Source: an uncultured Anaerolineales bacterium (lineage in GTDB: Bacteria > Planctomycetota > Phycisphaerae > FEN-1346). Taken from it: a stretch of DNA of 64,000 bases. Shown here one piece after another: positions 2-44,570 of the stretch; position 1 is the stretch's first letter, and every line of letters starts with the position of its first letter. The notes beneath the pieces are model-generated. The model was not told where the DNA came from. It worked only from the letters and a program-made list of their open reading frames with translations, and did no database searches. Position numbers and translations under genes: made by a program. The DNA lies in contig CAZNYC010000001.1 of NCBI GenBank assembly GCA_964577175.1, positions 14,851 through 78,850 on the forward strand, in the 5' to 3' direction.

Positions 2-3000
2 GACGGCGTCACGGAGTTCGGCGTCTTCATCGATCCCGCCACCGGCCACCTGTACGACGACTCGAACGGCGGGCTCTACGACCTCGAGGGCACCGGCCTC
101 AACCGCATGCTCGGCCAGGCCGGCGACGACCGGCTCTACGGCGGCACGTCGCTCGACTTCCTATACGGCAACGGCGGCGACGACGAACTCTACACGCGCG
201 ACGGTGAACGCTTCGAGGCCGCCTACGACGTCCCCGCCGGCGACGAGTGGAAGGCCTACGCCCAGTCCACCAACAAGGCCTGGTACTACGGCGCCACCGG
301 CGCCGACGACGTCATCGCCGTCGATTTCGTGACCGAACCCGGCCTGCTGAAGGACCATCACCTCATCACCCGCCTCACGAACAACGGCGGCAACTACTCG
401 TTCGACGCCCAGGTCCGTCTCGACTTCAGCGCCGTCGACGACGAGGGCAACTACATCTGGGACCCCGTCGACACCCTGACCGACATCGAGCGCATCCGCG
501 CCCAGGACCCCGACGAGCGCGCCGCCGGCGACCCGTACCGCGACATCCTGCTGACCGACGGCCTGCTGCCCCCGGAGGGCGATTTCCTCGCCATCATCAT
601 CGATTGCCTCGAGGGCAACGACCAGGTCACCGTCGGCCCGACCGTCCAGAAGACCGTCTGGACGGACGGCGGCCCCGGCGACGACCGCATCGAGTACCTG
701 GCCGGCAACGCCATCCTCGTCGACCGGACCGAGAGCCCGCGGAACGAGGTCGTCGGCGACCCGGCCGACGTCTCGCGGGCCTGGGCCCTGCCCGGCCCGG
801 CGGCCGTGCTCCTCGACTCGCCCGACCTCGTCCTGGACGACTCGGCCCTGTTCACGCTGAGCGCCGGCGGCGGCGAACCCGTCGAGGTCATCCTCGCCGC
901 CGCCGCCACCACGGACAACACGACCCCGGACGACCTCGTCGCCGACCTCGCTGCCGCGCTCGACGGCGCGGGCCTGACGGGCGTCGTCACGGCCGTGAAC
1001 ATGAACGGGCAGGTGGCCCTGCGGACGACGGCGGCCGGCCCGGACGCGGCGCTCGAGGTCCATTCCGCGAACAGCGTGGCCCGCACGGCCCTCGGCCTGG
1101 AGCAGGGGCAGGTCTCCGGCGGCATCACCATCGCCGGCAGCGCCGCCTTCACGGGCCTGACCGTCGACAACCCGGACGACGTGGACTGGTACACGTTCAC
1201 GATGGCGGACTACGGCTCGCCGGCCACGATCGCGCTCGAAAGCGCCTCCTCGGCCGACGAACTGGTGGCGCGGCTGTACCGGCTGGCCTCCGACGACACG
1301 CTCGTCCAGGTGGCCACGAACGAGGGCGTGCCGCTGCCCATCACCCCGGACGCCACCGAGGGCGTCCTCGTGGCGCCGAACGCCCTCTCCACGTTCCGGT
1401 TCACCGAGGACGTGACGTTCTCGCTCATCCTCGACGGCGACGAGGCGGACCCCCTCGAGGTCGCCGTTCCGCTCGCCCAGACCTCCGACAACCTGAACCT
1501 GGCGTACCTGGTGGCCGACCTGAACACGGCCCTGGCGGGCGTGCCCCGCGGCGAGGGCGTCGTGGCCGGCCAGTGGGAAGGCCGCATCACCTTCGCCCCG
1601 GCGGAGGGCTCCGGCATCTCGGACCTGGCCATCCGGGACGCCGCCCAACTCGGCTTCCCGCCCGTCAAGGCCCCCGGCGACGTGCCCAACGCCTGGCCGC
1701 TCGACCCCATCGAGAACCTCGACCGCGTCCGGGGCCTGACGGTCCACGACGCCGCCGACGCCGACTGGTTCCGGTTCACCCTGGCGGGCGACTCCGCCGG
1801 CAAGGCCGGCACGCTGACGCTGGAGCAGACGGCCGGCAGCGGGAACCTGCGGCTGGACCTGTACGACGCCGGCGGTGTCCCGCTCCTCGGCCGGCGGGTC
1901 GACCCGGCGGAAGGCACCGCCGTCCTCAACACCCGCGAGGTGGGCGGCCTCGCGGCCGGCACGTATTACCTCCGCGTCACCCACCACGACCCGGCCACCA
2001 ACGACCTGCCCACGCAGTACGACCTGGTTACGGCCATGCCCGGCGACGGCATGACGCAGTACGACCTTTCCGGCAAGGGGACGGCCGCACTCACCTTCAC
2101 GCCCGACCCGGACGAGGTGTACTACCTCCAGATCACCACGCCGAACCATCTGCCGACCGTCTACGACCTGGCCATCGACGCCGGCGACGGCGCGGAGGCG
2201 GCCGAGGTCGATCTGGCCACCCGCTCCGACCACGTCCGCCGCGACGTCCTGATCGGCGGCGAGGGGCACGACGTCCTCCGCGGCGGCCCGGCCGAGGACT
2301 GGATCTTCGGCGGGCCCGGCAACGACGTCCTGACCGGCGGCCTGGACTACCAGGAAAGCGACCTCCTCTTCGGCGGCGAGGGCGACGATACCTTCCAAAT
2401 CATCCCCACGCCCCTCGGCCCCACGCCCGACGCCGGACCCGAGACCCGCGTCGACCGCTTCGACGGGGGCGAGGGCACCGACCGCGTCCTCTACCTGGGC
2501 GGCGACACCGACCGCCTCGGCCGGCCCGTGCCGGACCACGTCGCCATCCGCTGGAACCGCTTCATCTACCGCTACGAGTTCGTGGCCCTGCAATGGGATA
2601 CGGCCAACCAGACGTTCGTGGTCGATCCGAACAAGAAGGTCCGGGCGAAGGTCGTCGCCGGCGACGCCGCGCCGGAGGACGGCGTGCTCTCCGGCGACGC
2701 CGTCTTCAGCCTCCAACTCGGCGGCACCGAGTACGGGCCGATTACCGTATCGGCCGACGCCACGGACGGCGGCGACGGCACGCCCGCCAACGAGACCCTC
2801 CAGGACCTGGTCGACGACCTCGACGCCGCCATCCTCGCCGCCGGCCTCAGCGAGCACTTCCTGGCCGGCAACGAGGGCGTCCTGCTGACCCTGGCCTCGG
2901 TCGGCCACGGCGAGGACCTGACGGTCGTCTCGCCCAACGCCGTGGCGGAGGAGGAACTGTACTTCGCCGACGGCGTCACCGCCCCGGGCACCGTGGCGGC

Positions 3001-6000
3001 CTACCTCCAGAACTACTCGTTCTACCAGGCCATCGACGTCGAGCGGACCGTCATCGACACCCAGGCCGGCGACGACGAGGTCCGCGGCGACCCCGAGTAC
3101 AAGTTCCCCCTGGCCGACGACTCCGGCGTCATCGACGAGGAGTGGGGCATCAAGGCCGGCCATTACCAGGAGGGCGCCTACATCGGCGCCCTGGAGATCT
3201 ACGGCGGCGAGGGCAACGACCGACTCTTCGGCGGCTACCTGGCCGACACCATCGACGGCGGGCCCGGCACCGACTACATCGCCGGCTCCATGGGCGACGA
3301 CCACCTGACCGGCGGCCCGGGGGCCGACCTGATCGTCGGCGACGGCGGCGTCGAGCCCGACCGGTTCGAGTTCGTCACGCGCGCCGGCGAGGACGGCACG
3401 AACACCAGCCCCATCTTTGCCGCACTCCTGGAGGGCCTCGGCTCCGACACGATCCTCTCGAACCTCTCGTTCAGCCTGGCGGACCGCGGCGACTGGTACG
3501 TCATCCCGACGCCGACGGCCAAGCAGGCGTTCGGCACCGCCGACGCCGCCCACGTCACCGTCGAGGAGGTGTTGAAGGGCCTGGCGTTCGACGACGACCT
3601 GGACATGGACCTGTTCGAAGGCCGCCTCCTGCCCGAGGCGAGCGGCTCGGAGTGGGACGGCCCGGGCGCCTACCTCTTTGCCGCCGAGGTCGACGACCCG
3701 GACGCCGAACTCTCGCTCATCCCGTCCGAGCAGTTCGCCGGCGTGCCGGACTACTACATGCTGCACATCGTGAACCCGCGGAGTTTCGGCGTCAAGGCCG
3801 TCGATGCGCCGGATACCGAGGGCATCGACCCCGTCACGCCGGAGAACGTAACCCTGTGGCTGGAGATCGACGGCGAGGCGACGGCCCCGTTCACCATCAC
3901 GGTCCACAATGCCGAGAGCGCCTCGAGCCTCATCACGCGCAACGAGCCCGGCGACGACCCGAACCTGAACGAGGTGCTCGCCGGCGCGGGCCTGGCCGAC
4001 CGCGCCATCGCCTGGTACGACCCGCGGTCGCCGGACCGCATCGTGCTGTCGCTGCGGCGGGACGGGTGGGCGAAGGTCCGCTTCGCCGATCCGTCGCAGG
4101 CGCGGCTGCTGGGATTCGAGGACGGCCAGGACAACCTCGGCCCGGTGGAGGCGCTGGGCACGTACTCGCTGACGCTGCCGCCGGAACTCGGCGACGTGAC
4201 CGACGTGGGCCCGGAGGCGGCCGACCAGGTCGTCTCGCCCGCCCAGCCGACCGACGTGCCGCGCCTCATCCCGCTCGGCGATCTCAACGGCGACGGCTCC
4301 GCAGACTTCGTGACGACGGCCCGCGACACGGTCGGTCCCTGGTCGCTCATCTCGGAGACGCCCGCGGGCGTCCATCCGCAGGAGATGGTCGGCCCGAGTT
4401 ACGCCACGATTTATCTCTCCGACCCGCTGCTGGACGAGGTCTCGGCCGAGGACGGCCGGTTCGTCACGCTCGAACTGCCGGCCCCGGCGGAGCGGAACTC
4501 GCTGTACATCCTCTCGGCGTTCGCCGGCCCGGCCGACTACAACGGCGACGGGTACGACGATCTCGCCGTCGGCGTCACGTCGCAGACGCTCGCGCTCGAC
4601 ACGTACACGAAGCAGGGCGTATATATCGTGTTCGGCCACGGCGGCGAGTGGGACGAGCCGATCGACATCCTGCACGAGGCCGACGCCATCCTGACGGGCT
4701 TCGAAAACCTCATGGACGTGGCCGCCGCCGGCGACGTCAACGGCGACGGGTACGACGACCTCCTGGCCTCCGACAACGGCGCCCCCGTGGGGGCGGAGCG
4801 CGGCCGCACGCTCCTGTTCTACGGCGGCCCGAACGCCTTCGCCGGCAGCGGCGTCCTGTACCGGGCGGAGTTCTCGCCCCGGAACGCGGGCGGCTTCACC
4901 ATCGACAACCGGATCGGGGCGGACGAGGACGGCCTCTGGCACCTCTCCACCGGCCGCGGCGCCGACCCGTATCACTCCGCCGACACGAGTTTCTACTTCG
5001 GCACCGGCGAAGACGAGGCGGGCGGCGGCCACTACGACGTGGGCGACACCGCCGGACGCATCACCTCGCCCCTCGTCACCCTCGACCACGCCGTGACGAA
5101 CCTGGAACTCTCGTTCACCTATTTCCTGGAAACCGAGCGCGCCGGCACGGGGCCCCTGGGCTGGGACGACGCCACCGTCGGCGTCAGCGTCAACGGCAAC
5201 GCTTTCGCGCAAGTCGTCTCGAACGACGACGCCCTCGTCGAATGCCAGGGCGACGAGGCCTGGTGGCACCGCGCGACGGTGGACCTCGGTGCCCTCGCGA
5301 AGGGCGACACCGTCCAGGTCCGGTTCCAGTTCGATACCGGCGACTACATCAGCAACGACCACGAGGGCTGGTACGTCGACGACGTGATGCTGCGGGCCAC
5401 GCTGGACGCCGAGGCGCTGGCCGATGCGGCCCTGTACGGCGAGTACGACCTGGAGTTCAACGGCCGCGTCCTCGCCGGCGTCGGCGACGTGAACAAAGAC
5501 GGCTACGACGATTTCGCCGTCGGCAACACCGGCGTGGAACCCGACCACGCGGCCCAGGTGTACCTGGTGCTCGGCCGGGCCGGCGCGATGCCCACGGGCG
5601 GCATCGCCGGCATCGCCGCGGAGCGGTTCGATTTCCCGTACATGTGGCCGATGATGGCCATCCGCCCGACCGGGCACGTCGAGGGCACGACCGGCGATGA
5701 CTTCGCCGTCTTCCTCAGCCACCCGAGCGGCCGGTACACGTATGTCGTGTACTACACCGGCAGCGTGTTCGACATGTTCAACGTTTCGGGCGAACTCATC
5801 CCCGTCGGCGACGTCAACGCCGATGGCCTGGCGGACATCGCCGCCGCCGGTGTCGAGACCACCCAGACCCTGGAAGAGGACGGCTCGCGCGTCGACCACC
5901 AGGTGTTCCAGGTGTTCCTGAACGAGTCGCACACCTCGTGGACGGACCCGGGTGCGTTCGACGTGCCGGACCTCGTCTTCGAGAGCGCCCGCCCGCTGTA

Positions 6001-9000: not shown

Positions 9001-12000
9001 CTTTTCGCCGCTCGGCGACTGGATGTACTTCATCGCGGGCGAGAACGCCCTCTGGCGCACCGACGGAACCGGCGCCAACACCAGCCACAAACTCGATTTC
9101 TTCTCCCTCTACGAGCCGGGCGTCAACCAGGCCGACGCCGTCGCCGCCGACGGCCGCGCGTTCATCGTGGCCCGGGGCGAGGCCCCCACCGGCCGGAAGT
9201 TCCGTATCTACCGGCTGAATCCCTCGGGCGAATGCGTCCCGGTGCGGGAGTTCGGCGCCGGCAGTTGGTCGCTCCGCAGACTGGAAGCGTTCGGCGACAA
9301 GGCCGTCTTCCAACTCGACGCCGCCCAGCCGCCCCAGACCGCCCTGTGGATCAGCGACGGCACGGAGCGCGGCACGCGGGTCCACCACGGGTCCCTGGAC
9401 CCGGGCAACAACCTCACCGACTGGGCCGTCATCGACGACGCCATCTACTTCGACGAGGATTCGCCCATCGACGAGACGGTCACCCTGTGGGTCAGCGACG
9501 GCACCAAACCACGGTCCATCACCCACGCGGGCACCCGGACGGCCCCGGCCACGTTCGACCTGCTCGACGAAGAGGGCGACATGGCGGTCACGCTCCGCGA
9601 CGGCGTGGTCCCGGCCGCCTTCGCCGCCACGGCGGACTTCACCACGTCGTCGGCCAAGCAGACGGTCGAGATCGACCTGACGGACTTCGTCAAGTCCGCC
9701 CTCGAGGAAGGCTACCGCCGCGCCACCCTGCGGATGACGTCCGACCCGTCGCTCGCCTGGGAAATCGACATCCCGACCGGCGACATCCCCGTGCCGACGG
9801 GCCTGGAGATCACGCGGGCGCACGGTGTGCTCGCCGACGTCCTCGACGGCAACGGGGGCGTCCTGTACCAGGGACTCGGGGCGATCGACATGCGGTGGCT
9901 CGACGCCGGCACGTACTATCTGCGGGTCTACAATCCCCATGCATGGGCCCAGACCGAGCCGGTCCGGTTCGCCATCGACTTCATGGCCCCGTTCCAGGGG
10001 CAGGCCCACGAGGCCACCGACATGGACCGCATCGAGGGCGACGACGGCGACGATATCCTCGTGGGCGGGGCCCATCTCGACCGCCTCTTCGGCGAAAGCG
10101 GCGAGGACGCCTTCCTGACCGAGGCCGTCGAGGTTCGCGACCTGGCCCCCTACGAGTTCACCCGCGCCCCGGACGCCGAGGACCGGCTCGTCTCGGACAA
10201 ACCGTCCATCATCGACCCCGCGGTGAACGACGTCTTCACGGACGTGCCGGTCATCCAGGCCGTGGCCGAGGCGCTCGACATCCCGCTCATCTCCGGCCTC
10301 TTCGCCGTGCCGCGCTTCGCCATTCCGGTCTACGCCAGCGAGATGAACACGCTGGTGCGCCTGGACCTGTCTTACACCTCGCTGATGGACCTGAGCGGCC
10401 TGGAGTACGCGACGAACCTGATGACGCTCGACCTCTCGGACACCACGGCCGCCGGCATGCTGCATGACATCGAACCCCGTGCCGCCGAGGCCGACATGCC
10501 CGACGCGGGCTTGCAGGTGGGCCTGGCGCGGCTGCGGTACCTCTCGCTGGACGGGACGGGGGTGGCGGCGGCCGACCTCGAATCCCTGGAACTGATCGTC
10601 ACCCTCCGGACGCTCTCCGCCTCCGGCAACCAGATCGAGACCACCGACGCGCTCGAAGACCTGTACCAGATGCGGTGGCTCGACCTCTCGGACAACCGCC
10701 TCGAGTCCCTCGACTCGCTCGCGCGCATGCCGGACCTGGAGTACGCGCTGCTTGAGAACAACTACCTTCTGGACGTCGGGCCGCTGGTCTACGGAGCGAT
10801 CATCGACGACGGCGACTGGGACACCGGCTACGGCGAGTATATCGGCGACGGCTCCGACTACCGCTGGTTCCACACCGTGTACCCGGTGGCGACGGCGTTC
10901 CGCGGCGACTACCACTTCCTGCCGTCCGACGCGCAGTGGCCAGACGAGGACCTCGTCGCCCGCTACGAGTTCACCGGCCTGCCGCACGACGACTACGAGG
11001 TCCTGGCCACCTGGCACGCCCACCAGGGGCAGTCGTCCACCGTCACGTATACGATCCCCGGCCCGGACGAGGCCGTCGACGTGGTCGTGAACCAGAAGTT
11101 CGACCCGTCCGGCCCGGCGTGGGGCGGCCGGCCGTGGCAGAGCCTCGGCGTCTTCCAGCCCCTGGCCGACGAGACGCTCCCCGTAACCCTCCGGCACGAG
11201 GGAAGCGACGGCACGGTCGTCGCCGACGCCGTGATGCTCCTCTCCACCGAGGGCCCGGTCCAGAACCTGAGGCTGCTGAACCTGCTCGGCAACGGCCTGG
11301 ACACCGACAGCCACGACATCTACCTGCCCCTGCTCGGCGACCGCGTCACCAACGAGGATTACGAACTGCTGGTCGAGCCGAACGCGGCCTCGCCCGTGTG
11401 GGACCAGGCCATCGATCCGCAGCACCTGCCGTTCAACCCCGTCCTGTATGGGACCGGCACGATCGAGGGGCTCGAGGCGTACCTTTCCGACCCGGCCGGC
11501 TGGGACATGCTCGTCGGCATGGGCGGCTCGCCGGAGGTCCTTCGCTACGCCGGACCGTACGACGCCGAGCCCGGCGCCTTCCTCGGCCGTCTGGGCTCCA
11601 CCAAGGCGCCCTGGCAGGAGGGCACGCACCAGGTCGCCGCCGGCGTCTACGACGCGTACGGGTTCCTGCTGGTCGTCGACCACGGCACGGACCGGCTCGT
11701 CCGGCTCGACCCGGTCACCGGCAAGATTCTCCAGACGGCGAACCTGACCGGCATGGGCGGCCTGCACGGGCCCACGGACATCACCACCTACGGCAACAAG
11801 GCGTACCTGGCGGATCCGCTCTCGCGGACCCTCCTCGCGTTCGAGGTCACGGCCGCGTCCTTCTCCGGGCCGACGCCGGTAACCGCCCTGCCCGGCACGC
11901 CGTACACCTACCGCATCGCTTACCTCCCCGGCGACCCGACCGACGGCATCCTCGTGGGATTCCAGACCGACGACCACACCGACTGGGTCCGGCGCTACGA

Positions 12001-15000
12001 CCTGGACACCGGCGCCGCCTGGACGGTCATCGACACCGACGACCTCCACTGGGACGACCTCTGCGACATCGCCGTGGCCGATGACGGCACCATCTACGCG
12101 CTCACGTGGGATTTCGTGGGCGGCAGCCACCCGATCGAACTGAACGTCCTGGCGTTCGCGTCCAACGGCGACCCCCTGAATGCTGGAAATCCGCTGGTCA
12201 CCGACACCCTGCCCACCGGGGCCCAGGACGCCACCATGGAACTTGGTCCGGACGGGCGGCTGTACGTGACGAATCCGCCCGAGGCCGCCGTCTGCGTCTA
12301 CAACCTCGACACGGGCGCGCGCGAGGAAACGCTCGTCTCCGGCGCGGGGGCGCTCCTGGCGCCGAGTTTCGTCACCTTCCGCCCGCCCACGTATTCGTAC
12401 GAGGTCGTGACCGACACCGGCGGCGCCGGGGGCGGCGCCGGGGCCCAGTTGGTCGACGGCGACGTGCGCGACGTCTTCACCTTCGAAACGGCGCCGGGGT
12501 ATCAGGGCACGGCCCAGATGACCGTCATCGCGCGCGACGCGATGCGCCGGCCGGGGCTGGGGCGCAACCTGCCCAAGCGAGGCCGCGACGCCGAAATCAC
12601 CTTCAACCTCCACGCCGGCACGGGCGGCATCTACGGCACCAAGTTCGACGACCTCGACGGCGACGCCGAGCGCGATGTCGGCGAACCCGGCCTCGAAAAC
12701 TGGGTCATCTTCCTGGACCTCAACGCCGACGGCGACCGGGATAGCGGCGAGCCGTGGACCCTGACGGATGCGAACGGCGACTACGCGCTGGTGGACCTGG
12801 ACTTCGGCCATTACGTCGTGGCCGAGACGCCCCAGGACCACGCCGGCCAGACCTTCCCCGAGCCCGGCCAGGCGGTCGGCGAGACCGTCCTGCTCGACAC
12901 CGATTTCGAGGAGGGCGAGGACGGCTTCACGATCGAGAACGTCGGCGGCGGCGCACCCGGCCTGTGGCACCGCTCCGACTACCACGGCGGTGAAGCCGGG
13001 CACGGCGGCGACTGGTGCTTCTATTTCGGGCGCGAACCCGAGCACGACTACGACACCGGCACCCCCGCCGGCCGCATCATTACCCCCGAAATCAGCCTCG
13101 CCGGCGTTACCGACGCCGCCCTCTCGTTCAATTACTACCTGGACGTCGAATACAGCCGCAGTTACGACTGGGCCGACGTCTACGTCTCGACCAGCGGCTT
13201 CGCCTGGACGAAGGTGGCGTCGCGCTACGGCGAGACGGACCCCGACCTTGAATGGATCATCGACCGCGAGGAGGTCTCCTCCTGGCACAGCCTCACCGTC
13301 GACCTGGACGACTGGCTCGGCGAAGAGATCGTCATCAAGTTCGAGTTCCGCACCTTCAGCCCGCAGTACAACGACCACGAAGGCTGGCTTGTCGACGACG
13401 TGACGGTCACCGCCGACCTTGCCGCTGCGGGCGTCCACGCCGTTCTTGTCGACGACGACGAGCCGGTCGCCGACGACCGCGACTTCGGCAATCAGCAAAT
13501 CGTCGACGCCGGTCCCGACCGGCAGGTGGACGAGGGCGACGTTGTGGAACTCGACGCCTGGGTGGCGGACCTGGAAGTCGCCTATCTCCTGGAGGACATC
13601 AACGGCGCCGGCAGTTCGGGGCCCCTGTGGTTCACCGAATACGCGGGCGACCTCTACTTCGCCGCCACCGGCAGCCAGGGACGCGAGTTGTACGTCTGGG
13701 ACGACAACGCCGTCCAGATGGTCGCCGACATCCGGCCCGGCGCCCTGTCGTCGTCTCCTTCGGAATTGACCGTCTACGACGGCGCCCTCTACTTCGCCGC
13801 CGACGACGGATCGACCGGCACCGAACTGTACCGGTACACGCCCAAAGACGGCGTCCAGTTGGCCGCCGACATCGCGCCCTCCGGCAGTTCGACCCCGGCG
13901 AACCTGTTCGTCTGGGACGGCAACCTGTACTTCTCCGCGTACGAGACCGCCGCAGTCGGCCGGGAACTGTACGTCCTCAGCGACAAAGGTGCCCACCTCG
14001 CGGCGGACGTCAATCCGGAGGGCAGCAGCGACCCCGGCGAATTCGCAGCCTACGGCGGACATCTCTATTTCGCCGCCACCACCAGGGGGACCGGGCGCGA
14101 ACTCTACGCCTACGACGGGAACCGCGTTCAGCCGGCGGCCGATATCCGGCCCGGCACGCCTTCCTCCGAACCCACCGACCTCATTGCCTTCAACGGCTAC
14201 CTGTTCTTTGCCGCCACCCATCCCGATGCCGGCCGCGAACTGCTCGTCTGGGACGGTTCGGAGGTCGCGGTGGCCCTGGACCTGGCTCCCGGCGCCGTCG
14301 GGTTCCCGGCCGTCCCACGCAGTTCCTCGCCGCAATACATGACCTACCATAAGGGCGGGCTGTACATGGCCGCCACCAACAGCCAGGGCGACCGCGAACT
14401 CGTCGCCTGGGACGGCAGCAGCAAGGTCTCCTGGATCGACGTCAACGACGACGGCTCCTCGCATCCCTACGACCTCGTCGTGTTCGACAACCGCGTCTAC
14501 TTCACCGCGAGCGACGACATCCACGGCCAGGAACTGTTCCGCCTCGAAGGCCTGAAGGCCGTCCTCGCCGCCGACATCCGCGAGGGGGCCTCCTCCAGCC
14601 CCGCCGCCATGACACCCTACAACGGGAAACTCTTCTTCCAGGCCGTCGATACCGGCGTCGGCGACGAACTGTTCTGCTTCGATCTCGATCCCGGCCTGGC
14701 TTACCACTGGCTGGTCACCGGCGGACCCTATACGAATCCCACGAGTTACGACGAGGCCCACTTCGAGTTCACGCCCATCGACGCCGACATCTACCTCGCC
14801 ACCCTGACCGTGACCGTCGAGGGCACCGGCGACACCTACCAGGACCGGTGCCGGGTCTTCGCCGACGACGTCCTGCCGACCGTCGAGGCCGGCCCGGACG
14901 CCGCCGTCGGCGAGGGCGAGACCTTCGAACGGTCCCTCACCATCGACGACCCCGGCTGGGACGACTGGACCGTCACGGTCTCCTGGGGCGACGGCGCCGA

Positions 15001-17404
15001 GCCCGACGTCTTTCTGCGCTCCGGCACCGACCGCGACGTCGACATCGCCCACACCTGGGCCGACGACGGCGAGTTCCCCGTCACCGTGACCGTCGAGGCC
15101 GACGGCGAAGACGGCATCTACACCGACACCTTCACGGTCACGGTCGGCGAACTGCCGCCGTCCATCGGCCTGACCGGCCACGACGGCACGGAAGGCACGC
15201 CGGCCCTGGTCGAGGTCGTGCTCACGGATCCGTCCGGATCGCTCGGCGAGGGCGCCGAGGGATGGACCTTCACCGTGGACATGGGCGACGGCACCGGGCC
15301 GCAGCCGTTCGTCCCGCACGTCGACTTCCCGGACCAGGCCTCCGCCAACCTCCTGTACGCGTACAACGACGACGGCGACTACGACGTGACCGTGACGGTC
15401 GTGGACGACGACGGGACGGAGGTCGCGAAGCACGTCACGCTGAGCATCGCCAACGTCCCGCCCACGATCACGGACCTGGACGGCGACCAGTTGCTCGGCC
15501 AGGACGATACCGGCGCCTACACCGCCGCCGCCACCGATCCCGGCGACGACGCCCTCACCTACGAGTGGGACTTCGACGACGGCACCGAGCCCGCCTACGG
15601 CCCGGAGGTCACCCACGCCTTCGCCGAGCCCGGCACGTACATGGTTGAAGTAACCGTCGGCGACGGGCAGGACGAGACCTCCAAGGAAATCAAGGTTCAG
15701 GTGGACGACGACCTGCCGCCGACCGTGACCGGCACCGGCCCGTCGGCCGTCGGGGCGGAGGGCGTGCTCGCGGGGACGCTCGGCGACATCGTCCTGCACG
15801 TCAGCGAACCGCTCGACCCCGCCGACGCGGCCGACCCGGTCAATTACCTACTCCTCGAAGCCGGCCCGAGCGGCGCGTTCGACGACGGCGACGACGTGCC
15901 CTGCGCCCTGACCCCGCAGTACGTGCCCGGCCAGACGCAGGTCACCCTGGCAGTGGATGCCGGACCGCTCGCCGGCGGCCTCTACCGTCTCACGGCGCGC
16001 GGCGAGACGAGCCTCCACGACCCGGCCGGCAACCGCCTGGACGGCGACGGCGACGGCGACGAGGGCGGCGATTACGTCCGCCTCTTCCAGGTCGTCACCG
16101 ATGTCGTCTGGGGAGGCGCCTTCGGCAGCGATTGGGACGTGGCCGGCAACTGGTGGGGCGACCAGGTGCCGGGCCCCGCCATGACGGCCGTCTTCGACCA
16201 GGATACGCCCAACCAGCCCGCCCTCTTCCTCGACGGATCCGTCGGGCATCTCGACCTGCGCAGCGCCGGTTGGACCATCCATGGCCACGAGCAGACGCTC
16301 GTCGTCGGCGGCATCAACAGCACCGGGCCGGGCAACAACACTCTTGAACCGGACGTCGAACTCGCACGCGACGCCACGTGGACCGTCGGCGACGGTAACA
16401 GTCTCGTCCTGAACGGCCCCCTCGGCGGCGGCGACCACACGCTCACGAAGGACGGCGAGGGGACGCTCGTCCTGGCCGGCGGCCAGGATCACGGAAGCGG
16501 CCTGTCGCTCGCCATCACCGGCGGCACGGTGCGGGCGGAGGGTGGCGAAACGCTCGACCTGGACGGCCTCTCCATGAACTCGACCCTCGACCTCACGACC
16601 GGCAGCCTCGCCGTCGACTACGAGCCGGGCGCCAGCCCGTTCGACGACGTCGAAGCCTGGGTCGTCTCCGGCTATGGCGGCGGGACGTGGGACGGCACGG
16701 GCGTCGCCTCGAGCACGGCCGCGAACGACGGCATGCCCACCGCCCTCGGCGTCGGCGACAACACCGACCCGCTCCTCGGCCTCGCGGACCTGGAAGGCGA
16801 ACCCCTCGACCCCGACGGCTCCGACGTCCTCGTCACATTCACCTGGTACGGCGACGTGAATCTCGACGGCGTCGTCGATGCCGCCGACTACGCCATCATG
16901 GACCAGTCGTGGAACAACGGGTCGCAGAGCCCGGCGGGCGGCGGCCAGTGGCGGTGGGCGTGCGGCGACGTGAACTACGACGGCATCGTCGACGCGGCCG
17001 ACTACGCCCTCATCGACCAGGTGTGGAACCACTACGGGGGCCAGACGCTGGCCGGTTCGTCCGAGCCCGAGCCCCTCGCTTCGCCGCCGGACGGTGCGCT
17101 CGCACCGCGTCTCGACATGTCCAACGAGACGGCGATGCCGGCAGAGGGCACGGGCGACGGCGGCGGCAGGCCGGCCGCGACGGCACCGTCCCCCGTGCCG
17201 ACGGGCTCCTTCGAGGCCGAGGCCCGGACGACACCTGCGCCATTCCGTGGCCTGGTGACCGCGTCGCCGCAGGAGCCCCCTTCCGCGTCGCCACGCTGGT
17301 TGCCCCGGCACGAGGCCGGCCTGGAAGACGGCGGAAGAGGCGCTTCAGACAGGCTGAGGGACCCGTTGGCCGTCCCCGCTCTCGACATCACGTTGGGGAT
17401 GTGA
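2..17404 (+). CDS. Giant multi-domain cell-surface protein (adhesin-like), 3' portion; 5' end lies upstream of window
   Basis: Frame is open from nt 2 through the listed 107..17404 ORF (>5,765 codons, no stop). Hemolysin-type Ca-binding GGxGxD repeats (aa ~1-30, ~720-770, ~1030-1085). PPC-like domains with DWYTFT/DWFRFT/EAWFRFT motifs. About 12 FG-GAP repeats (GDVNGDGYDDL, nt ~4250-7750). Two MAM-like modules ending GWYVDDV/GWLVDDV (nt ~5050-5400 and ~13070-13410). ELWxxDGT repeats (QLWVSDGT, ELWRTDG, ALWRTDGT, ALWISDGT, TLWVSDGT at nt ~8480-9500; RELYVWDxN series at nt ~13600-14650). LRR block (nt ~10370-10790). PKD domain (nt ~15500-15730). Two dockerin repeats GDVNLDGVVDAADYA / GDVNYDGIVDAADYA (nt ~16850-17040). 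Stop TGA at 17402-17404. Confidence 0.9.
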   Translation, partial: DGVTEFGVFIDPATGHLYDDSNGGLYDLEGTGLNRMLGQAGDDRLYGGTSLDFLYGNGGDDELYTRDGERFEAAYDVPAGDEWKAYAQSTNKAWYYGATGADDVIAVDFVTEPGLLKDHHLITRLTNNGGNYSFDAQVRLDFSAVDDEGNYIWDPVDTLTDIERIRAQDPDERAAGDPYRDILLTDGLLPPEGDFLAIIIDCLEGNDQVTVGPTVQKTVWTDGGPGDDRIEYLAGNAILVDRTESPRNEVVGDPADVSRAWALPGPAAVLLDSPDLVLDDSALFTLSAGGGEPVEVILAAAATTDNTTPDDLVADLAAALDGAGLTGVVTAVNMNGQVALRTTAAGPDAALEVHSANSVARTALGLEQGQVSGGITIAGSAAFTGLTVDNPDDVDWYTFTMADYGSPATIALESASSADELVARLYRLASDDTLVQVATNEGVPLPITPDATEGVLVAPNALSTFRFTEDVTFSLILDGDEADPLEVAVPLAQTSDNLNLAYLVADLNTALAGVPRGEGVVAGQWEGRITFAPAEGSGISDLAIRDAAQLGFPPVKAPGDVPNAWPLDPIENLDRVRGLTVHDAADADWFRFTLAGDSAGKAGTLTLEQTAGSGNLRLDLYDAGGVPLLGRRVDPAEGTAVLNTREVGGLAAGTYYLRVTHHDPATNDLPTQYDLVTAMPGDGMTQYDLSGKGTAALTFTPDPDEVYYLQITTPNHLPTVYDLAIDAGDGAEAAEVDLATRSDHVRRDVLIGGEGHDVLRGGPAEDWIFGGPGNDVLTGGLDYQESDLLFGGEGDDTFQIIPTPLGPTPDAGPETRVDRFDGGEGTDRVLYLGGDTDRLGRPVPDHVAIRWNRFIYRYEFVALQWDTANQTFVVDPNKKVRAKVVAGDAAPEDGVLSGDAVFSLQLGGTEYGPITVSADATDGGDGTPANETLQDLVDDLDAAILAAGLSEHFLAGNEGVLLTLASVGHGEDLTVVSPNAVAEEELYFADGVTAPGTVAAYLQNYSFYQAIDVERTVIDTQAGDDEVRGDPEYKFPLADDSGVIDEEWGIKAGHYQEGAYIGALEIYGGEGNDRLFGGYLADTIDGGPGTDYIAGSMGDDHLTGGPGADLIVGDGGVEPDRFEFVTRAGEDGTNTSPIFAALLEGLGSDTILSNLSFSLADRGDWYVIPTPTAKQAFGTADAAHVTVEEVLKGLAFDDDLDMDLFEGRLLPEASGSEWDGPGAYLFAAEVDDPDAELSLIPSEQFAGVPDYYMLHIVNPRSFGVKAVDAPDTEGIDPVTPENVTLWLEIDGEATAPFTITVHNAESASSLITRNEPGDDPNLNEVLAGAGLADRAIAWYDPRSPDRIVLSLRRDGWAKVRFADPSQARLLGFEDGQDNLGPVEALGTYSLTLPPELGDVTDVGPEAADQVVSPAQPTDVPRLIPLGDLNGDGSADFVTTARDTVGPWSLISETPAGVHPQEMVGPSYATIYLSDPLLDEVSAEDGRFVTLELPAPAERNSLYILSAFAGPADYNGDGYDDLAVGVTSQTLALDTYTKQGVYIVFGHGGEWDEPIDILHEADAILTGFENLMDVAAAGDVNGDGYDDLLASDNGAPVGAERGRTLLFYGGPNAFAGSGVLYRAEFSPRNAGGFTIDNRIGADEDGLWHLSTGRGADPYHSADTSFYFGTGEDEAGGGHYDVGDTAGRITSPLVTLDHAVTNLELSFTYFLETERAGTGPLGWDDATVGVSVNGNAFAQVVSNDDALVECQGDEAWWHRATVDLGALAKGDTVQVRFQFDTGDYISNDHEGWYVDDVMLRATLDAEALADAALYGEYDLEFNGRVLAGVGDVNKDGYDDFAVGNTGVEPDHAAQVYLVLGRAGAMPTGGIAGIAAERFDFPYMWPMMAIRPTGHVEGTTGDDFAVFLSHPSGRYTYVVYYTGSVFDMFNVSGELIPVGDVNADGLADIAAAGVETTQTLEEDGSRVDHQVFQVFLNESHTSWTDPGAFDVPDLVFESARPLYAESGSLQLLTGLFAGVGDVNGDIVADVALGDSLGGNVRVYFGRELLDTESEATAAEDPDLFRLPLAKPWLPEPEGRQGLDLNEPAPPDIRDAWRVEGDAREDHLSGSGSVGDFNRDGYDDLLVWDDEAAHVLLGPVKFDRAEAIDPRGEIHVDLAGKARFGMAAGFGDVDGDGFDDLLFVHLEEDHLGPGGDVWFVSAIWGNADPARTLSAADAEPLIQLYADDYATGETPQLLLLNWDGDERTDVYVHFRHPGTGDIPYHGVLYGGASLTRGGGPASTADRYFDVGDGSDDEEALGAHLFGEDWDEAYELSELTGPLTALATDITGDGLDDLLFARQDAFSVEEIGQGPLPNVGRVYSLSPGAVNPKDRLVTVGDEAMGFPTAGVIAEDLAFAAGIFDIGDANRDGKQDVAVTRPFEKADEAEGSVLVYYGSAWWPGPLSAADAAVTLRRVEADVLPADTYIEGPIDVTAGDFDGNRVPDLAVSQPAWQLTDGVSIFDQDSRGVVHVVWNVADLATHAGGDLVLVDGPVDLDGDELQDLLALEGQTEGDRFGTLPLTIHLNLDHDRYDDLVVGAPLSDAIGQTVKEEAGKVYAVYGSPRRRSLPDGWTEITNKSFTGLGDRLVNPATGRPDTYTDQDNDGDGTPDTNDFTVPPPGAGRDTEAWFRFTTAGDGKAGDTIRLLPTAYDELEVLLNGPAGHLDLGTGEVVDSASTIEVGGAPDRLGIFEFNLSELLEQLGNPDGIEKAELTLHARIDPHLPFTKPGAYAEAGGLVYFLGADPVQGGHRLCVTDGTLQNTEAVARVYAMAPYQMVSAGGDIFFYASDNEWGPQLWVSDGTDKGTRRLTQLGWPGDGTLISHLTAWNGDVYFEAIDEDGPQLYRTEHLGGGEFDLVRLTDEAGGFNVTKLVPGANRLLVSRLKDGGEVNVYGLYATDGRPVTDLGEFELDGGSQFLQYTGERDGWTYFGSENWGGTEELWRTDGLNAKFVADIPVADANTRLKGFSPLGDWMYFIAGENALWRTDGTGANTSHKLDFFSLYEPGVNQADAVAADGRAFIVARGEAPTGRKFRIYRLNPSGECVPVREFGAGSWSLRRLEAFGDKAVFQLDAAQPPQTALWISDGTERGTRVHHGSLDPGNNLTDWAVIDDAIYFDEDSPIDETVTLWVSDGTKPRSITHAGTRTAPATFDLLDEEGDMAVTLRDGVVPAAFAATADFTTSSAKQTVEIDLTDFVKSALEEGYRRATLRMTSDPSLAWEIDIPTGDIPVPTGLEITRAHGVLADVLDGNGGVLYQGLGAIDMRWLDAGTYYLRVYNPHAWAQTEPVRFAIDFMAPFQGQAHEATDMDRIEGDDGDDILVGGAHLDRLFGESGEDAFLTEAVEVRDLAPYEFTRAPDAEDRLVSDKPSIIDPAVNDVFTDVPVIQAVAEALDIPLISGLFAVPRFAIPVYASEMNTLVRLDLSYTSLMDLSGLEYATNLMTLDLSDTTAAGMLHDIEPRAAEADMPDAGLQVGLARLRYLSLDGTGVAAADLESLELIVTLRTLSASGNQIETTDALEDLYQMRWLDLSDNRLESLDSLARMPDLEYALLENNYLLDVGPLVYGAIIDDGDWDTGYGEYIGDGSDYRWFHTVYPVATAFRGDYHFLPSDAQWPDEDLVARYEFTGLPHDDYEVLATWHAHQGQSSTVTYTIPGPDEAVDVVVNQKFDPSGPAWGGRPWQSLGVFQPLADETLPVTLRHEGSDGTVVADAVMLLSTEGPVQNLRLLNLLGNGLDTDSHDIYLPLLGDRVTNEDYELLVEPNAASPVWDQAIDPQHLPFNPVLYGTGTIEGLEAYLSDPAGWDMLVGMGGSPEVLRYAGPYDAEPGAFLGRLGSTKAPWQEGTHQVAAGVYDAYGFLLVVDHGTDRLVRLDPVTGKILQTANLTGMGGLHGPTDITTYGNKAYLADPLSRTLLAFEVTAASFSGPTPVTALPGTPYTYRIAYLPGDPTDGILVGFQTDDHTDWVRRYDLDTGAAWTVIDTDDLHWDDLCDIAVADDGTIYALTWDFVGGSHPIELNVLAFASNGDPLNAGNPLVTDTLPTGAQDATMELGPDGRLYVTNPPEAAVCVYNLDTGAREETLVSGAGALLAPSFVTFRPPTYSYEVVTDTGGAGGGAGAQLVDGDVRDVFTFETAPGYQGTAQMTVIARDAMRRPGLGRNLPKRGRDAEITFNLHAGTGGIYGTKFDDLDGDAERDVGEPGLENWVIFLDLNADGDRDSGEPWTLTDANGDYALVDLDFGHYVVAETPQDHAGQTFPEPGQAVGETVLLDTDFEEGEDGFTIENVGGGAPGLWHRSDYHGGEAGHGGDWCFYFGREPEHDYDTGTPAGRIITPEISLAGVTDAALSFNYYLDVEYSRSYDWADVYVSTSGFAWTKVASRYGETDPDLEWIIDREEVSSWHSLTVDLDDWLGEEIVIKFEFRTFSPQYNDHEGWLVDDVTVTADLAAAGVHAVLVDDDEPVADDRDFGNQQIVDAGPDRQVDEGDVVELDAWVADLEVAYLLEDINGAGSSGPLWFTEYAGDLYFAATGSQGRELYVWDDNAVQMVADIRPGALSSSPSELTVYDGALYFAADDGSTGTELYRYTPKDGVQLAADIAPSGSSTPANLFVWDGNLYFSAYETAAVGRELYVLSDKGAHLAADVNPEGSSDPGEFAAYGGHLYFAATTRGTGRELYAYDGNRVQPAADIRPGTPSSEPTDLIAFNGYLFFAATHPDAGRELLVWDGSEVAVALDLAPGAVGFPAVPRSSSPQYMTYHKGGLYMAATNSQGDRELVAWDGSSKVSWIDVNDDGSSHPYDLVVFDNRVYFTASDDIHGQELFRLEGLKAVLAADIREGASSSPAAMTPYNGKLFFQAVDTGVGDELFCFDLDPGLAYHWLVTGGPYTNPTSYDEAHFEFTPIDADIYLATLTVTVEGTGDTYQDRCRVFADDVLPTVEAGPDAAVGEGETFERSLTIDDPGWDDWTVTVSWGDGAEPDVFLRSGTDRDVDIAHTWADDGEFPVTVTVEADGEDGIYTDTFTVTVGELPPSIGLTGHDGTEGTPALVEVVLTDPSGSLGEGAEGWTFTVDMGDGTGPQPFVPHVDFPDQASANLLYAYNDDGDYDVTVTVVDDDGTEVAKHVTLSIANVPPTITDLDGDQLLGQDDTGAYTAAATDPGDDALTYEWDFDDGTEPAYGPEVTHAFAEPGTYMVEVTVGDGQDETSKEIKVQVDDDLPPTVTGTGPSAVGAEGVLAGTLGDIVLHVSEPLDPADAADPVNYLLLEAGPSGAFDDGDDVPCALTPQYVPGQTQVTLAVDAGPLAGGLYRLTARGETSLHDPAGNRLDGDGDGDEGGDYVRLFQVVTDVVWGGAFGSDWDVAGNWWGDQVPGPAMTAVFDQDTPNQPALFLDGSVGHLDLRSAGWTIHGHEQTLVVGGINSTGPGNNTLEPDVELARDATWTVGDGNSLVLNGPLGGGDHTLTKDGEGTLVLAGGQDHGSGLSLAITGGTVRAEGGETLDLDGLSMNSTLDLTTGSLAVDYEPGASPFDDVEAWVVSGYGGGTWDGTGVASSTAANDGMPTALGVGDNTDPLLGLADLEGEPLDPDGSDVLVTFTWYGDVNLDGVVDAADYAIMDQSWNNGSQSPAGGGQWRWACGDVNYDGIVDAADYALIDQVWNHYGGQTLAGSSEPEPLASPPDGALAPRLDMSNETAMPAEGTGDGGGRPAATAPSPVPTGSFEAEARTTPAPFRGLVTASPQEPPSASPRWLPRHEAGLEDGGRGASDRLRDPLAVPALDITLGM

Positions 17405-17485
17405 CCGGCTCCTGACCCTTCGAGGGGAACGGGGCGTTGTCTCGCTCCATCCCCTCAGCACGGATGGCCTTCCTGAGTCGGGGCG

Positions 17486-20158: not shown

Positions 20159-20263
20159 CAGGTCACCCCCATTCTAGGCCGACGCCGGCCGGGTAAACAA
20201 GAAGCGGCATAGAAGGCCGGCCGGGCTGGCAAGAGAGGCGTGCCATGGCTTTTCGCTAAGTGC

Positions 20264-20293
20264 TTGTCACGAACCGGCTGCAAGCCCTAGAAT
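20264..20293 (+). promoter_or_regulatory. Sigma70-like promoter for the rSAM-ArsM operon (TTGTCA-N18-TAGAAT)
   Basis: TTGTCA at 20264-20269, an 18-nt spacer, and TAGAAT at 20288-20293, about 100 nt upstream of the GTG start at 20391. The 5' UTR contains the hairpin cgttcgggccttccgaacg. Confidence 0.35.
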
Positions 20294-20390
20294 CGGTGTG
20301 GTCCAGAGACGACTCGCCACGTTCGGGCCTTCCGAACGGCCAGGGCCGGCCGGCGGCGGGCAGTGCAGGACATCCCTTGAGGAGCGCACC

Positions 20391-23300: not shown

Positions 23301-23438
23301 GCCATCCTGGGCTTTCGGCTTCACGCCGACGCGGCGGTCGTCTGCTCGCAGACGACCGAGAACACCGAGTGCATCGGAGCAGCCTGCCCGCTCGCACGCG
23401 TCGGGGCCGCTACAGAGATGGAAGGAGAGACGGCATGA
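20391..23438 (+). CDS. arsM: Fusion protein: radical SAM domain + ArsM-type arsenite S-adenosylmethionine methyltransferase + C-terminal Cys-rich domain
   Basis: GTG at 20391 with GGAG 7 nt upstream, in frame with the listed 20298..23438 ORF. The radical SAM CxxxCxxC is CNMACRHC (LWLHVTNRCNMACRHC). ArsM hallmarks: SYGCGSPV, VDLGSGSGVEC, VVSNCVLNL and GECIAGAL, matching the conserved ArsM Cys residues. The ~300-aa C-terminal region carries many Cys pairs (CACGEP, CMVCAAP, CAYCGE, CDACH, ICGGHCAYMGACG, GRCCQRD). Confidence 0.8.
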   Translation: MPFDLTAWTRLESDGVPVYVQPERPDWFVPNAAADRILQSLAGGTTPDGHIETLRLLDRLPDTPAPAYAGRAERLSLDHLRELWLHVTNRCNMACRHCLFASGPDDAAALPRDRVLAIAREVVDLGCRVFALTGGEPTIHPEFESIVDDLLGLADSTVVVLTNGRALPALAASMDRWPADRVHLQVSLDGLGDRHDRIRGRGAMAELLCNLACLRDGGRPFTLSMCVTGENVADMPGLVRFAADAGATNVHFMWYFVRGRGERDGFVPPDAIFPHLAEAAETAEDVGVGVDNLDALASQAFAPPGTIHDGSTSGWESVAVGPDGRLYPSAALVGMPNLATPLDGGLERAWREGPPLRRLRQRTAAGLDSPLRLLTGGGDPDHSYTAGGTFVGDDPYLPLQERTLLWLIAREASRWPDDGPPAVRLKMGDVLESCGPHGPVATVHNNCLVSVAGTDGRTAVRTFYAEAARNPREDILNPVAYPEDLIAHIPDASRVRSYGCGSPVLEATLAPGDRVVDLGSGSGVECFVASRLVGPDGEVLGVDMLDAMLDLAREGARGVAERLGYANLAFRKAYLEALPLPDDWADVVVSNCVLNLSTHKRRTFAEIHRILKPGGRLVVADVVCETEPDTAIRNDDSLRGECIAGALTQRDLAGLLSESGLVGLRVLKRFPYRTVRGHPFYSLTFEARTAAVSGETARVMYRGPFASVTTCAGTVLPAGRTREVQADEVRGAGDGLLRLDAAGRVTNVAMEASCACGEPEAETPEAPSVPAPTAKHAAGCMVCAAPLVYHDVPRSAACAYCGEKSETAALCEAGHFVCDACHAADALALIERSCLASDETDMATLMERIRRHPAVPMHGPEHHGLVPGVILATARNLGEPVTDEMVRRGIGRGLQICGGHCAYMGACGAALGVGVAFGILLDASPVKGAERRAVQWVVTEALTPIADLEAGRCCQRDAWLALRKAADTSQAILGFRLHADAAVVCSQTTENTECIGAACPLARVGAATEMEGETA

Positions 23439-44515: not shown

Positions 44516-44570
44516 CGCCGCGCACGAGGCCGCGTGGTCGTGTTAAAGGGTGCGAGCCGGGAGGCGAACC

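Follow-up and report, generated by a model that had tools for sequence, protein, structure and literature searches.

The window analysed here, a stretch of 64,000 nucleotides from contig CAZNYC010000001.1, opens inside a giant gene on its forward strand, one real and uninterrupted gene for a giant modular Ca-binding protein of extracellular type. The product ends in a cassette of a right-handed beta-helix and a dockerin-like double EF-hand, which in most relatives is followed by a PEP-CTERM signal and in the window protein by a long tail that closes with a conserved motif, here called the C-motif. Proteins with the C-motif often begin with a conserved motif as well, here called the N-motif. 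It is tentatively proposed that the C-terminal tail and the N-motif mark the substrates of a dedicated and undescribed planctomycete export, sorting or anchoring pathway, which would be parallel to, and interchangeable with, Sec plus PEP-CTERM/exosortase on the shared cassette, the window giant being one cargo of it; this is considered possible rather than probable. The greater interest lies in the possible sorting signal and less in the giant protein; taken alone, the gene adds another adhesin-like giant to a phylum in which such proteins are well known.

The C-terminal tail

The last 434 amino acids (aa) of the product comprise the beta-helix, a connector reading TWDGTGVASS, a duplicated GDVN(L/Y)DG(V/I)VDAADY segment and a tail of 120 aa that is predicted to be disordered. 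The parts are placed as follows, with the basis of each assignment in brackets.

16100..16630, +, right-handed beta-helix, part one of the cassette (AlphaFold2 (AF2) model, predicted local distance difference test (pLDDT) 80-95; weak PATR match)
16838..17041, +, dockerin-like double EF-hand (GDVNLDGVVDAADY ... GDVNYDGIVDAADY), part two of the cassette (Pfam Dockerin_1, sequence, model)
17042..17359, +, Pro/Ala/Gly-rich spacer of about 105 aa, predicted disordered (composition, AF2)
17360..17401, +, conserved extreme C-terminal motif DPLAVPALDITLGM, then the stop codon at 17402-17404 (class comparison)

The occurrence of the cassette was surveyed by a HMMER scan of 1.84 billion representative proteins with the beta-helix and dockerin part as query. 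It was found in 7,701 representative clusters at E <= 1e-3 and in 2,425 at E <= 1e-10. With few exceptions it stands at the very C-terminal end, and among the best 150 the proteins that carry it range from about 130 to 4,197 aa. The sequence beyond the cassette was then sorted into classes with custom regular expressions in these best 150 of the 7,701 representatives. A PEP-CTERM-like end was present in about 91 of the 150, and in the first relatives the dockerin pair is followed within about 20-40 residues by VPEPA, a hydrophobic helix and RRR, which is a canonical PEP-CTERM signal. A second class, with 21 members and several near misses, has an Ala/Pro/Ser/Gly-rich tail of about 130-200 aa that closes with D-[PL]-L-x-[VL]-P-A-L-[DE]-[VI]-x-L(-G-[VMA]). 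The window protein belongs to this class, its tail ending ...DPLAVPALDITLGM* at the position that the PEP-CTERM signal takes in most relatives.

The terminal motif lies 0-4 residues from the stop in 20 of the 21 class members and 12 residues from it in the remaining one; internally the pattern turns up about 0.0002 times per 24-aa window, and none of 82 control proteins has it. Another conserved element, centred on a Trp with [AP]-W-[SL]-P as its context, stands about 25-30 residues upstream of the terminal motif (SPRWLP at 17288-17305 in the window protein), and in the class about 20 acidic residues separate W-x-P from the terminal motif. A PEP-CTERM signal (PF07589/TIGR02595) is absent from the window protein, which has neither the hydrophobic helix nor the basic cluster and only a PEP-like remnant, SSEPEPLAS; a signal hidden by a frameshift was rejected after all three frames at the 3' end had been read. 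The terminal motif had no Pfam match at E up to 10, and the last 760 aa gave no NCBIfam match to it at E up to 0.01. A metagenome scan with the strict pattern returned 37 stretches, of which two were confirmed on short contigs (L024 and L025); both end an open reading frame (ORF), with W-x-P ... DPLAVPALDVAL[GE]V directly before the stop. No description of the bipartite C-terminal tail, or of its mutual exclusion with a Sec signal peptide plus PEP-CTERM on a cassette otherwise shared, was found in the literature searched, the coverage of which was incomplete, and the signature appears to be undescribed. A full-text search for dockerins with PEP-CTERM also returned no paper, which is weak evidence given the same incomplete coverage.

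The N-terminal partner

The N-terminus of 13 of the 21 C-motif proteins has a short run of basic residues, then [LF]-E-x-L-E-x-R-x-L-L-[SDA], and no hydrophobic signal peptide; most of the other eight look N-terminally truncated. The N-motif was found in none of 103 PEP-CTERM-like proteins, 47 of which have a Sec-like hydrophobic N-terminus as called by a crude hydropathy heuristic; its frequency differs between C-motif and PEP-CTERM proteins with p = 1.5e-12 (Fisher's exact test). It is the motif of Pfam family PF07595, 'Planctomycete extracellular' (Planc_extracel). According to PMC8567305, the motif RRLxxExLExRxLLA (PF07595; Studholme 2004) is regarded as an export signal specific to planctomycetes and is present on eight of the ten longest proteins of Tuwongella immobilis, which have 4,016-10,566 aa. 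The available portions of papers that mention PF07595, including PMC8567305, contain no mention of a C-terminal partner motif.

The two kinds of protein can be encoded side by side. In locus L022 (ENA ERZ27297441 k141_3860568, 10001-24948) adjacent genes encode an LTD/CotH protein of 2,371 aa and an LTD/CotH/Calx-beta protein of 2,584 aa, both with a PF07595-type N-motif and an LPALDV-type C-motif, and the product of the next gene, 249 aa long, has a Sec signal peptide and ends in PEP-CTERM. A purely phylogenetic explanation, by which the signals would be lineage-specific, is weakened by this locus, and also by P0098, P0100 and P0101, which are of the Sec plus PEP-CTERM type with cassettes 60-77% identical to that of the window protein. 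A third conserved ending, '...(I/F)(N/R)KDAKFLADR', was observed on the N-motif proteins P0179, P0199 and P0244 and may be another terminal signal variant.

The PF07595 motif has been presumed to be a signal since 2004 without an assigned pathway, and a conserved C-terminal partner provides a concrete handle on it. The mutual exclusion of the C-motif with the Sec signal peptide and PEP-CTERM bears on the export and retention of megadalton planctomycete surface proteins, and the distribution of the motif across genomes, if profiled, could lead to the machinery, as happened earlier with exosortase.

A proposed model for export and anchoring

The package as a whole, namely PF07595-type export, a Ca-stiffened adhesive filament, a cell-proximal cassette and an alternative C-terminal sorting or anchoring signal, is regarded as reasonably probable. 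The missing N-terminal part would be like that of the homologues, with about 2,000 aa devoid of known domains ahead of RTX repeats that span about 1,200 aa, and its extreme end would carry the planctomycete export motif (PF07595) and not a classical Sec signal peptide. The RTX, FG-GAP, ELWxxDGT, LRR, MAM and PKD modules would form an outward-projecting adhesive filament stiffened by Ca2+, in which the ligand-binding modules may bind polysaccharide, particles or other cells in a Ca-dependent manner. The C-terminal cassette would be the cell-proximal end, and is so placed because most relatives have PEP-CTERM, an envelope sorting signal, directly after it. In the window protein and its class PEP-CTERM would be replaced by a flexible spacer and the tail W-x-P ... 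D-P-L-A-V-P-A-L-D-[VI]-x-L-G-[VM]-COOH. This tail would be an alternative signal for sorting or anchoring that has no transmembrane helix and is paired with the PF07595 N-terminal signal. The 5,800-residue product has no transmembrane-grade hydrophobic segment (maximum Kyte-Doolittle hydropathy over 19 residues (KD19) 1.58, outside the tail).

Several caveats apply to this model and to the pathway proposed from it. Surface location and ligand binding are suggested by domain families, and the N-terminal motif and the total length are drawn from homologues of 34-46% identity; the sole locus with a true start, L016, comes from a metagenome-assembled genome (MAG) labelled Gammaproteobacteria, and its N-terminus falls below the PF07595 gathering score. 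The terminal motif may alternatively be a structural or propeptide element, and no candidate for the sorting enzyme or receptor was identified. A search for the motif on unrelated cargo at database scale was uninformative, a 60-aa profile giving four meaningless matches. The motif classes depend on custom regular expressions and cover the best 150 of the 7,701 representatives, among which many sequences are truncated at the N-terminus, and the Sec signal peptides were called by a heuristic.

Among the 40 window ORFs scanned there is no cohesin, no exosortase and no component of a type I secretion system (T1SS). Other explanations rank below this model in the order of a tether through cohesin, a T1SS adhesin, a decayed PEP-CTERM signal and an artefact.

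The dockerin-like pair

The initial annotation recognised a type I dockerin pair, and at the level of sequence this was upheld by a match to Dockerin_1 (PF00404) in two stretches, at 44.9 bits against a cut-off of 22.9, and by the likeness of the duplicated segment in sequence to solved type I dockerins (5m2s_B, E = 7.9e-5; 2y3n_B, 2.3e-3). Each half consists of an EF-hand-like 12-residue Ca loop (GDVNLDGVVDAAD at aa 5617 and GDVNYDGIVDAAD at aa 5655) and a helix. The Ca-ligand positions (D1, N/D3, D5, D9, D12) are invariant or nearly so in 45 relatives, across which the helix residues DY..ID are also strongly conserved. A first model of the pair had a pLDDT of 40-64; a second, built from the 45-sequence alignment, had a mean pLDDT of 75.9 and a predicted template modelling score (pTM) of 0.68, with helices at 20-32 and 58-71 after the loops. 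Six of the seven PDB neighbours of this model found by Foldseek are cellulosomal dockerins, with TM of 0.46-0.61 (0.53-0.61 when target-normalised) and E of 0.27 or worse. The name 'dockerin-like' is justified for the duplicated segment. The preceding beta-helix was modelled with confidence, and its PDB neighbours are only generic beta-helices at E of 0.06 or worse.

The cellulosomal type I and II dockerins (e.g. Xyn10B of C. thermocellum, 2ccl_B, and Doc8 of R. flavefaciens, 5m2s_B) share with the window pair the duplicated D-x-N-x-D-G-x-x-D-x-x-D loop and helix of about 22 residues. A C-terminal pair on a very large, scaffold-like protein also recalls the type II dockerin of the scaffoldin CipA. 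Unlike the cellulosomal modules, the window pair has its own DY..ID helix signature and no cohesin among the scanned ORFs, is embedded in a beta-helix cassette with a sorting signal after it in relatives, and comes from an organism that is not cellulosomal.

A functional dockerin would bind, in a Ca-dependent manner, a cohesin on an outer-membrane or scaffold protein, and would thereby tether the giant or build a cellulosome-like 'planctosome'. The above-threshold Dockerin_1 match, the likeness to solved type I dockerins, the two loop-helix motifs of the AF2 model and its cellulosomal neighbours all speak for such binding, and the conservation of the Ca ligands and of DY..ID suggests either a conserved partner or a structural role. 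Cohesin/dockerin pairs have moreover been reported in freshwater planctomycete lineages (PMC6461901), and a cell-proximal position beside PEP-CTERM in relatives suits anchoring. The claim that the dockerin implies a cohesin-bearing partner was nevertheless not supported, as neither the 40 window ORFs scanned nor the giant protein nor the neighbourhoods of two relatives (L022 and L023) gave a cohesin match. Most cassette relatives have their own PEP-CTERM anchor, so that a second, cohesin-based anchor would be redundant for them, and the pair is dispensable for the C-motif class: P0083 lacks it, and in the product of the second L022 gene it is degenerate (PNGIVDQWDLNGF, twice) and without Ca ligands, yet a related terminal sequence is retained in both. 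The Foldseek E-values, finally, are not significant. A cohesin tether is unlikely, if the best placed of the alternatives.

The dockerin-like pair would seem to be the standard Ca-binding module of a widespread cassette, and its routine presence there is a caution against reading cellulosome biology into every Dockerin_1 match. The pair had also been called unusual for a protein of such size, a view at odds with a cassette present in 7,701 clusters and, among the best 150, in proteins of up to 4,197 aa. Nor is a dockerin on a giant protein unusual in itself, because dockerin-bearing and planctomycete giants have already been published (bioRxiv 10.1101/2023.11.21.568195; PMC8567305). Genes for proteins of at least 10,000 aa are frequent in the Planctomycetes-Verrucomicrobia-Chlamydiae (PVC) phyla, Planctomycetota among them, and Omnitrophota are reported to have 'dockerin-type giant proteins' (bioRxiv 10.1101/2023.11.21.568195). 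The Omnitrophota giants resemble the window protein as extracellular PVC proteins with Ca-binding EF-hand or dockerin-type repeats and a proposed role in attachment, but they have many dockerin and thrombospondin repeats, C-terminal transmembrane and SecA-like regions and at least 30,000 aa, whereas the window protein has a single pair.

The giant protein itself is a member of the known giant planctomycete surface proteins. It shares with those that carry PF07595 the phylum-level context, a size in the range of 4,000 to more than 10,000 aa and a modular mixture of adhesion and Ca-binding domains; the N-motif is shared by L016 and by the 13 C-motif proteins, and its presence in the window protein is extrapolated from these homologues.

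Alternative secretion routes and possible loss of PEP-CTERM

Giant RTX adhesins secreted by T1SS, such as LapA, MpIBP and SiiE, are very large, acidic and Ca-dependent, with RTX repeats, long extenders and ligand-binding modules. Were the window protein an adhesin of the LapA/MpIBP kind, its acidic tail would be the secretion signal and the N-motif a retention or processing element. The several RTX blocks in the window and the very large one upstream in homologues are in keeping with this, as is the lack of a Sec-type signal peptide in C-motif proteins; the end of the window class (D-[VI]-x-L-G-V or D-V-R-L) presumably resembles the acidic-then-hydrophobic ends of protease/lipase-type substrates. 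However, the RTX repeats of T1SS adhesins abut the C-terminal signal, whereas those of the window protein lie in its first two-thirds, with about 2,400 residues between the last block (10031-10117) and the C-terminus. RTX is absent from the precomputed Pfam lists of smaller C-motif proteins (P0106, LTD/CotH; P0128, Beta_helix/NosD), and no genes for ATP-binding cassette (ABC) transporters, membrane fusion proteins (MFP) or TolC were found among the ORFs scanned in the 46 kb downstream, nor in L022 and L023. T1SS signals are seldom as conserved in sequence as the C-terminus of this class, in which an N-terminal export-type motif is conserved as well. In PMC8567305 that motif is treated as an export signal. 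Type I secretion is on this balance improbable.

Two further routes were considered and rejected: a type V autotransporter, since PATR scored 16.6 against 27 bits, no autotransporter barrel was matched and the C-terminus is predicted to be disordered, and a C-terminal domain of the type IX secretion system (T9SS) kind, since no such domain was matched and the tail is disordered.

It is less probable still that the tail is the non-functional residue of a PEP-CTERM anchor lost by mutation or read-through, the exoprotein being released unanchored. The PEP-like remnant SSEPEPLAS stands right after the dockerin pair (17042-17070), where relatives have VPEPATLAL; 'PAPEPAT...AVLLAR' is kept in three of the 21 class members (P0099, P0119 and P0238); and P0098, P0100 and P0101, all of the Sec plus PEP-CTERM type, have cassettes 60-77% identical to that of the window and yet intact PEP-CTERM ends. 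Such remnants suggest that the long-tail class may derive from PEP-CTERM ancestors or that both classes may interconvert; as a general feature of the class the remnant was rejected, having been seen in only three of 21 members and the window protein. Against decay stands the conservation, both of sequence and of position, that the far end of the tail shows in at least 21 clusters with differing cargo, together with its co-variation with a different N-terminal signal, which is unexpected for a decaying sequence. The G+C content at third codon positions (GC3) of the giant frame also remains about 0.83 through the tail, and no PEP-CTERM is present in the other frames. The cassette is homologous, at up to 77% identity, to that of PEP-CTERM/exosortase proteins with a PATR-type beta-helix, which end in VPEP, a helix and RRR; the window protein differs from them in lacking the hydrophobic helix and basic cluster, and its class in having a different N-terminal signal.

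Reality of the reading frame

A single uninterrupted frame of about 17.3 kb with its start outside the window had been reported, and translation, GC3 and domain content confirmed it. There are 5,800 sense codons without an internal stop between 2 and 17404 (+), with the stop codon at 17402-17404; the frame is open to the first base of the window, which places the start codon outside it, and the first ATG in frame, at 107, leaves 5,765 aa counted from there. The partial product has a mass of 617 kDa and a pI of 4.05, with 11.4% Asp and 11 Cys.

The whole window has a G+C content of about 70% and contains many long spurious ORFs, and ORF length alone is for that reason weak evidence. The giant frame is taken as the real one because of its GC3 bias, the curated family matches along its whole length and a chance of about 1e-46, calculated from base composition, of a stop-free run of 5,800 codons. 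Its G+C content at codon positions 1, 2 and 3 is 0.71, 0.46 and 0.93, and GC3 was 0.89-0.97 in all 11 of the 1.5-kb windows sampled (2-16,501), a uniformity seen in this frame only. Two long ORFs lie opposite the giant gene, at 161-7471 (-) with 2,436 aa and at 7505-15799 (-) with 2,764 aa; both are by-products of the extreme GC3 (0.93) and not genes, and are a trap for ORF-based annotation.

Frameshifts or a collapse of repeats had been named as what would undo the single gene, and no sign of either was seen. The DNA repeats within the gene (FG-GAP loops, RTX, PKD and the dockerin pair) are 60-84% identical with no near-identical ones among them, and Tandem Repeats Finder reported trivial arrays only, hence the absence of any sign of collapse. 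A homologous locus, L001, is collinear with the product in one high-scoring segment pair (HSP) of 3,931 columns and one frame. An artefact, be it a chance high-GC frame, genes fused by sequencing errors or a misassembly of repeats, is thus scarcely credible and was rejected on repeat identity, GC3, end-to-end domain matches and this collinearity, even though spurious ORFs abound in the window and assembly errors are common in giant repetitive genes.

Homologues and probable full size of the gene

Species-representative genomes were scanned with the first 500 aa of the window protein, which gave 20 loci and a best identity of 60% for this N-terminal query. The first 800 aa were compared with 5.8 billion proteins, among which the best match was 55% identical and all matches were shorter than 1,400 aa. 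The closest relative is P0083, with 62-70% identity over the PKD to beta-helix part. L001, from a Planctomycetaceae MAG, is collinear with window residues 6-3849 at 46% identity, and L004 with residues 1-3807 at 35%; both are orthologue-like genes. The frame is open across the whole 21-kb locus in L001, L003, L005, L007, L008 (Neorhodopirellula pilleata Pla100) and L014, with about 3,300 codons upstream in each.

In L001 the frame extends for at least 3,333 codons ahead of the region homologous to the first residues of the window protein. Of these 3,333 aa about 2,000 have no Pfam match, and after them comes a large RTX block that includes over 25 HemolysinCabind stretches. It is in the tail of an RTX block like this one that the window opens. 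L016 is collinear with the upstream part of L001 (34% over 2,849 columns) and has a true start, with the N-terminus 'FEALEPRLLLSADP' ('...RRKALFEALEPRLLLSADP...'), which matches PF07595 at model positions 2-20 of 20 with 19.8 bits, below the gathering score of 25.5. Because the frame of collinear homologues is longer by at least 3,333 codons on the upstream side, the full protein probably has about 9,000 aa or more and the gene about 27 kb, of which the window would hold the 3' two-thirds; the earlier size of more than 5,765 aa was on this evidence an underestimate. Homologues of the N-terminal RTX-flanking region of the window protein (L012, L013 and L015-L020) were also found in MAGs labelled Gamma-, Beta- and Alphaproteobacteria and Verrucomicrobia, L016 with its planctomycete-type N-motif among them. 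The module may be shared or transferred widely, or else some of these bins carry wrong labels.

Domain organisation

The giant protein was scanned against Pfam and NCBIfam in overlapping 800-aa tiles with curated cut-offs. The features upstream of the cassette, with the evidence for each in brackets, are as follows.

2..17404, +, 3' part of the giant gene, 5,800 codons and stop (translation, GC3, hydropathy, composition)
113..193, +, final GGxGxD repeats of an RTX block extending beyond the window edge on the upstream side (repeat pattern)
788..1117, +, unannotated repeat domain of about 100 aa ('...TTDNTTPDDLVADLAAALDGAGL...'), with further copies at 1418-1594 and 2678-2974 (sequence comparison)
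1760..1981, +, PPC-like (pre-peptidase C-terminal) beta-sandwich (Pfam, 21.6 vs 25.9 bits, below cut-off)
2246..2503, +, RTX nonapeptide block 2, HemolysinCabind (Pfam, NCBIfam)
3197..3349, +, RTX nonapeptide block 3 (Pfam, NCBIfam, tandem repeats)
4274..7729, +, FG-GAP region with about 13 DxNxDGxxD Ca loops (Pfam, repeat comparison)
4895..5398, +, MAM-like domain 1, inside the FG-GAP region (paralogy to MAM-like domain 2)
8351..9511, +, ELWxxDGT block 1, 7 L[WCY]x[ST]DG[TRL] motifs (NCBIfam, 59.2 vs 65 bits, just below cut-off)
10031..10117, +, short RTX block 4 (Pfam)
10352..10786, +, leucine-rich repeat block, LRR_4 (Pfam; internalin-like by NCBIfam, far below the cut-off of that family)
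10958..11239, +, Golvesin_C-like domain (Pfam, 29.7 vs 31.6 bits, just below cut-off)
12926..13414, +, MAM-like domain 2, InhA-like_MAM (Pfam, 31.8 vs 26.9 bits)
13580..14683, +, ELWxxDGT block 2, about 8 repeats (TIGR04534, 191.9 vs 65 bits, 5 stretches)
14873-15163, 15164-15466 and 15467-15712, +, three tandem PKD domains (PKD_4, 108.7 vs 27 bits, three stretches)

HemolysinCabind, FG-GAP, FG-GAP_3, LRR_4, InhA-like MAM, PKD_4, PKD and Dockerin_1 exceeded their Pfam cut-offs, while PPC, Golvesin_C, SdrD_B, PATR and ELWxxDGT block 1 remained below theirs. The RTX matches, in four blocks in the window protein, reached 54-58 bits against 23 for HemolysinCabind, and FG-GAP reached 65.7, 74.2 and 47.1 bits against 22.1 in three tiles. 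The approximately 13 FG-GAP-type Ca loops lie between aa 1427 and 2576 and would be enough blades for two 7-bladed propellers. The two MAM-like domains are paralogous (37% identity, E = 3e-27), and the position of the first within the run of FG-GAP blades recalls the I-domain insertion of integrin alpha subunits. Between the Golvesin_C-like domain and MAM-like domain 2 there are about 350 aa without annotation and then a sub-threshold SdrD_B match, and an unannotated Ig-like stretch follows the PKD domains. The repeat of about 100 aa has the consensus '...TADNTT(I/P)DDL..D(L/I)N.A...G.....A......L.(L/I)RT...' and recurs many times upstream in L001, L003, L007, L008 and L009; PF27198, precomputed on some database matches, may be this domain.

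The inventory of families in the initial annotation stood in large part, with RTX, FG-GAP, LRR, PKD and Dockerin_1 above cut-off. Of its two ELWxxDGT blocks the second is clear and the first falls just short; the PPC assignment corresponds to a PPC-like domain below cut-off; the LRR block is sound, though the internalin-like label scores far below its cut-off; the 12 or so FG-GAP repeats are closer to 13 loops; and the single PKD domain is in fact three. Missing from it were the two MAM-like domains, the beta-helix before the dockerin pair and the conserved terminal motif.

Neighbouring genes and host

The genes downstream of the giant gene encode GH63, a radical-SAM/methyltransferase/DUF5714 fusion, GH127, a sulfatase and a BNR sialidase-like protein, followed further on by an HZS-alpha/cytochrome/LamG protein, Nqr/Rnf subunits, Acs and others, which is a planctomycete-like polysaccharide-degrader repertoire. 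Of four neighbouring proteins looked up by exact sequence, one had a match, on a 2.7-kb Logan contig from run SRR7048227. The best named matches are to Phycisphaerales, Planctomycetota and Phycisphaerae, and the host is probably a Phycisphaerae-like member of the Planctomycetota.

A gene for a T2SS-F/TadC-like membrane protein is located at 62178-63167 (-), and a further ORF at 63295-63996 (-) reaches the end of the window. These two may belong to a locus for a pilus or for secretion. A T2SS-like locus has been reported beside giant genes in Omnitrophota (bioRxiv 10.1101/2023.11.21.568195); here the T2SS-F-like gene and the giant gene are about 45 kb apart and no link between them is seen.

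The radical SAM fusion (20298-23438, +) is an unusual multi-domain enzyme of 1,046 aa that joins radical SAM, a class I methyltransferase, a zinc ribbon and DUF5714, and its gene sits between that for GH63 and those for VTT and pyridine-nucleotide-disulphide oxidoreductase proteins. The protein of 1,242 aa encoded at 44550-48278 (+) combines a hydrazine-synthase-alpha middle domain, a weak c-type cytochrome match and Laminin_G_3, an architecture typical of planctomycetes. The G+C content falls to 0.59 at 60001-62000, from about 0.70 elsewhere, over a PIF1/UvrD-like helicase gene (ORF 60560-62113, -), and this region may be horizontally acquired or mobile DNA.

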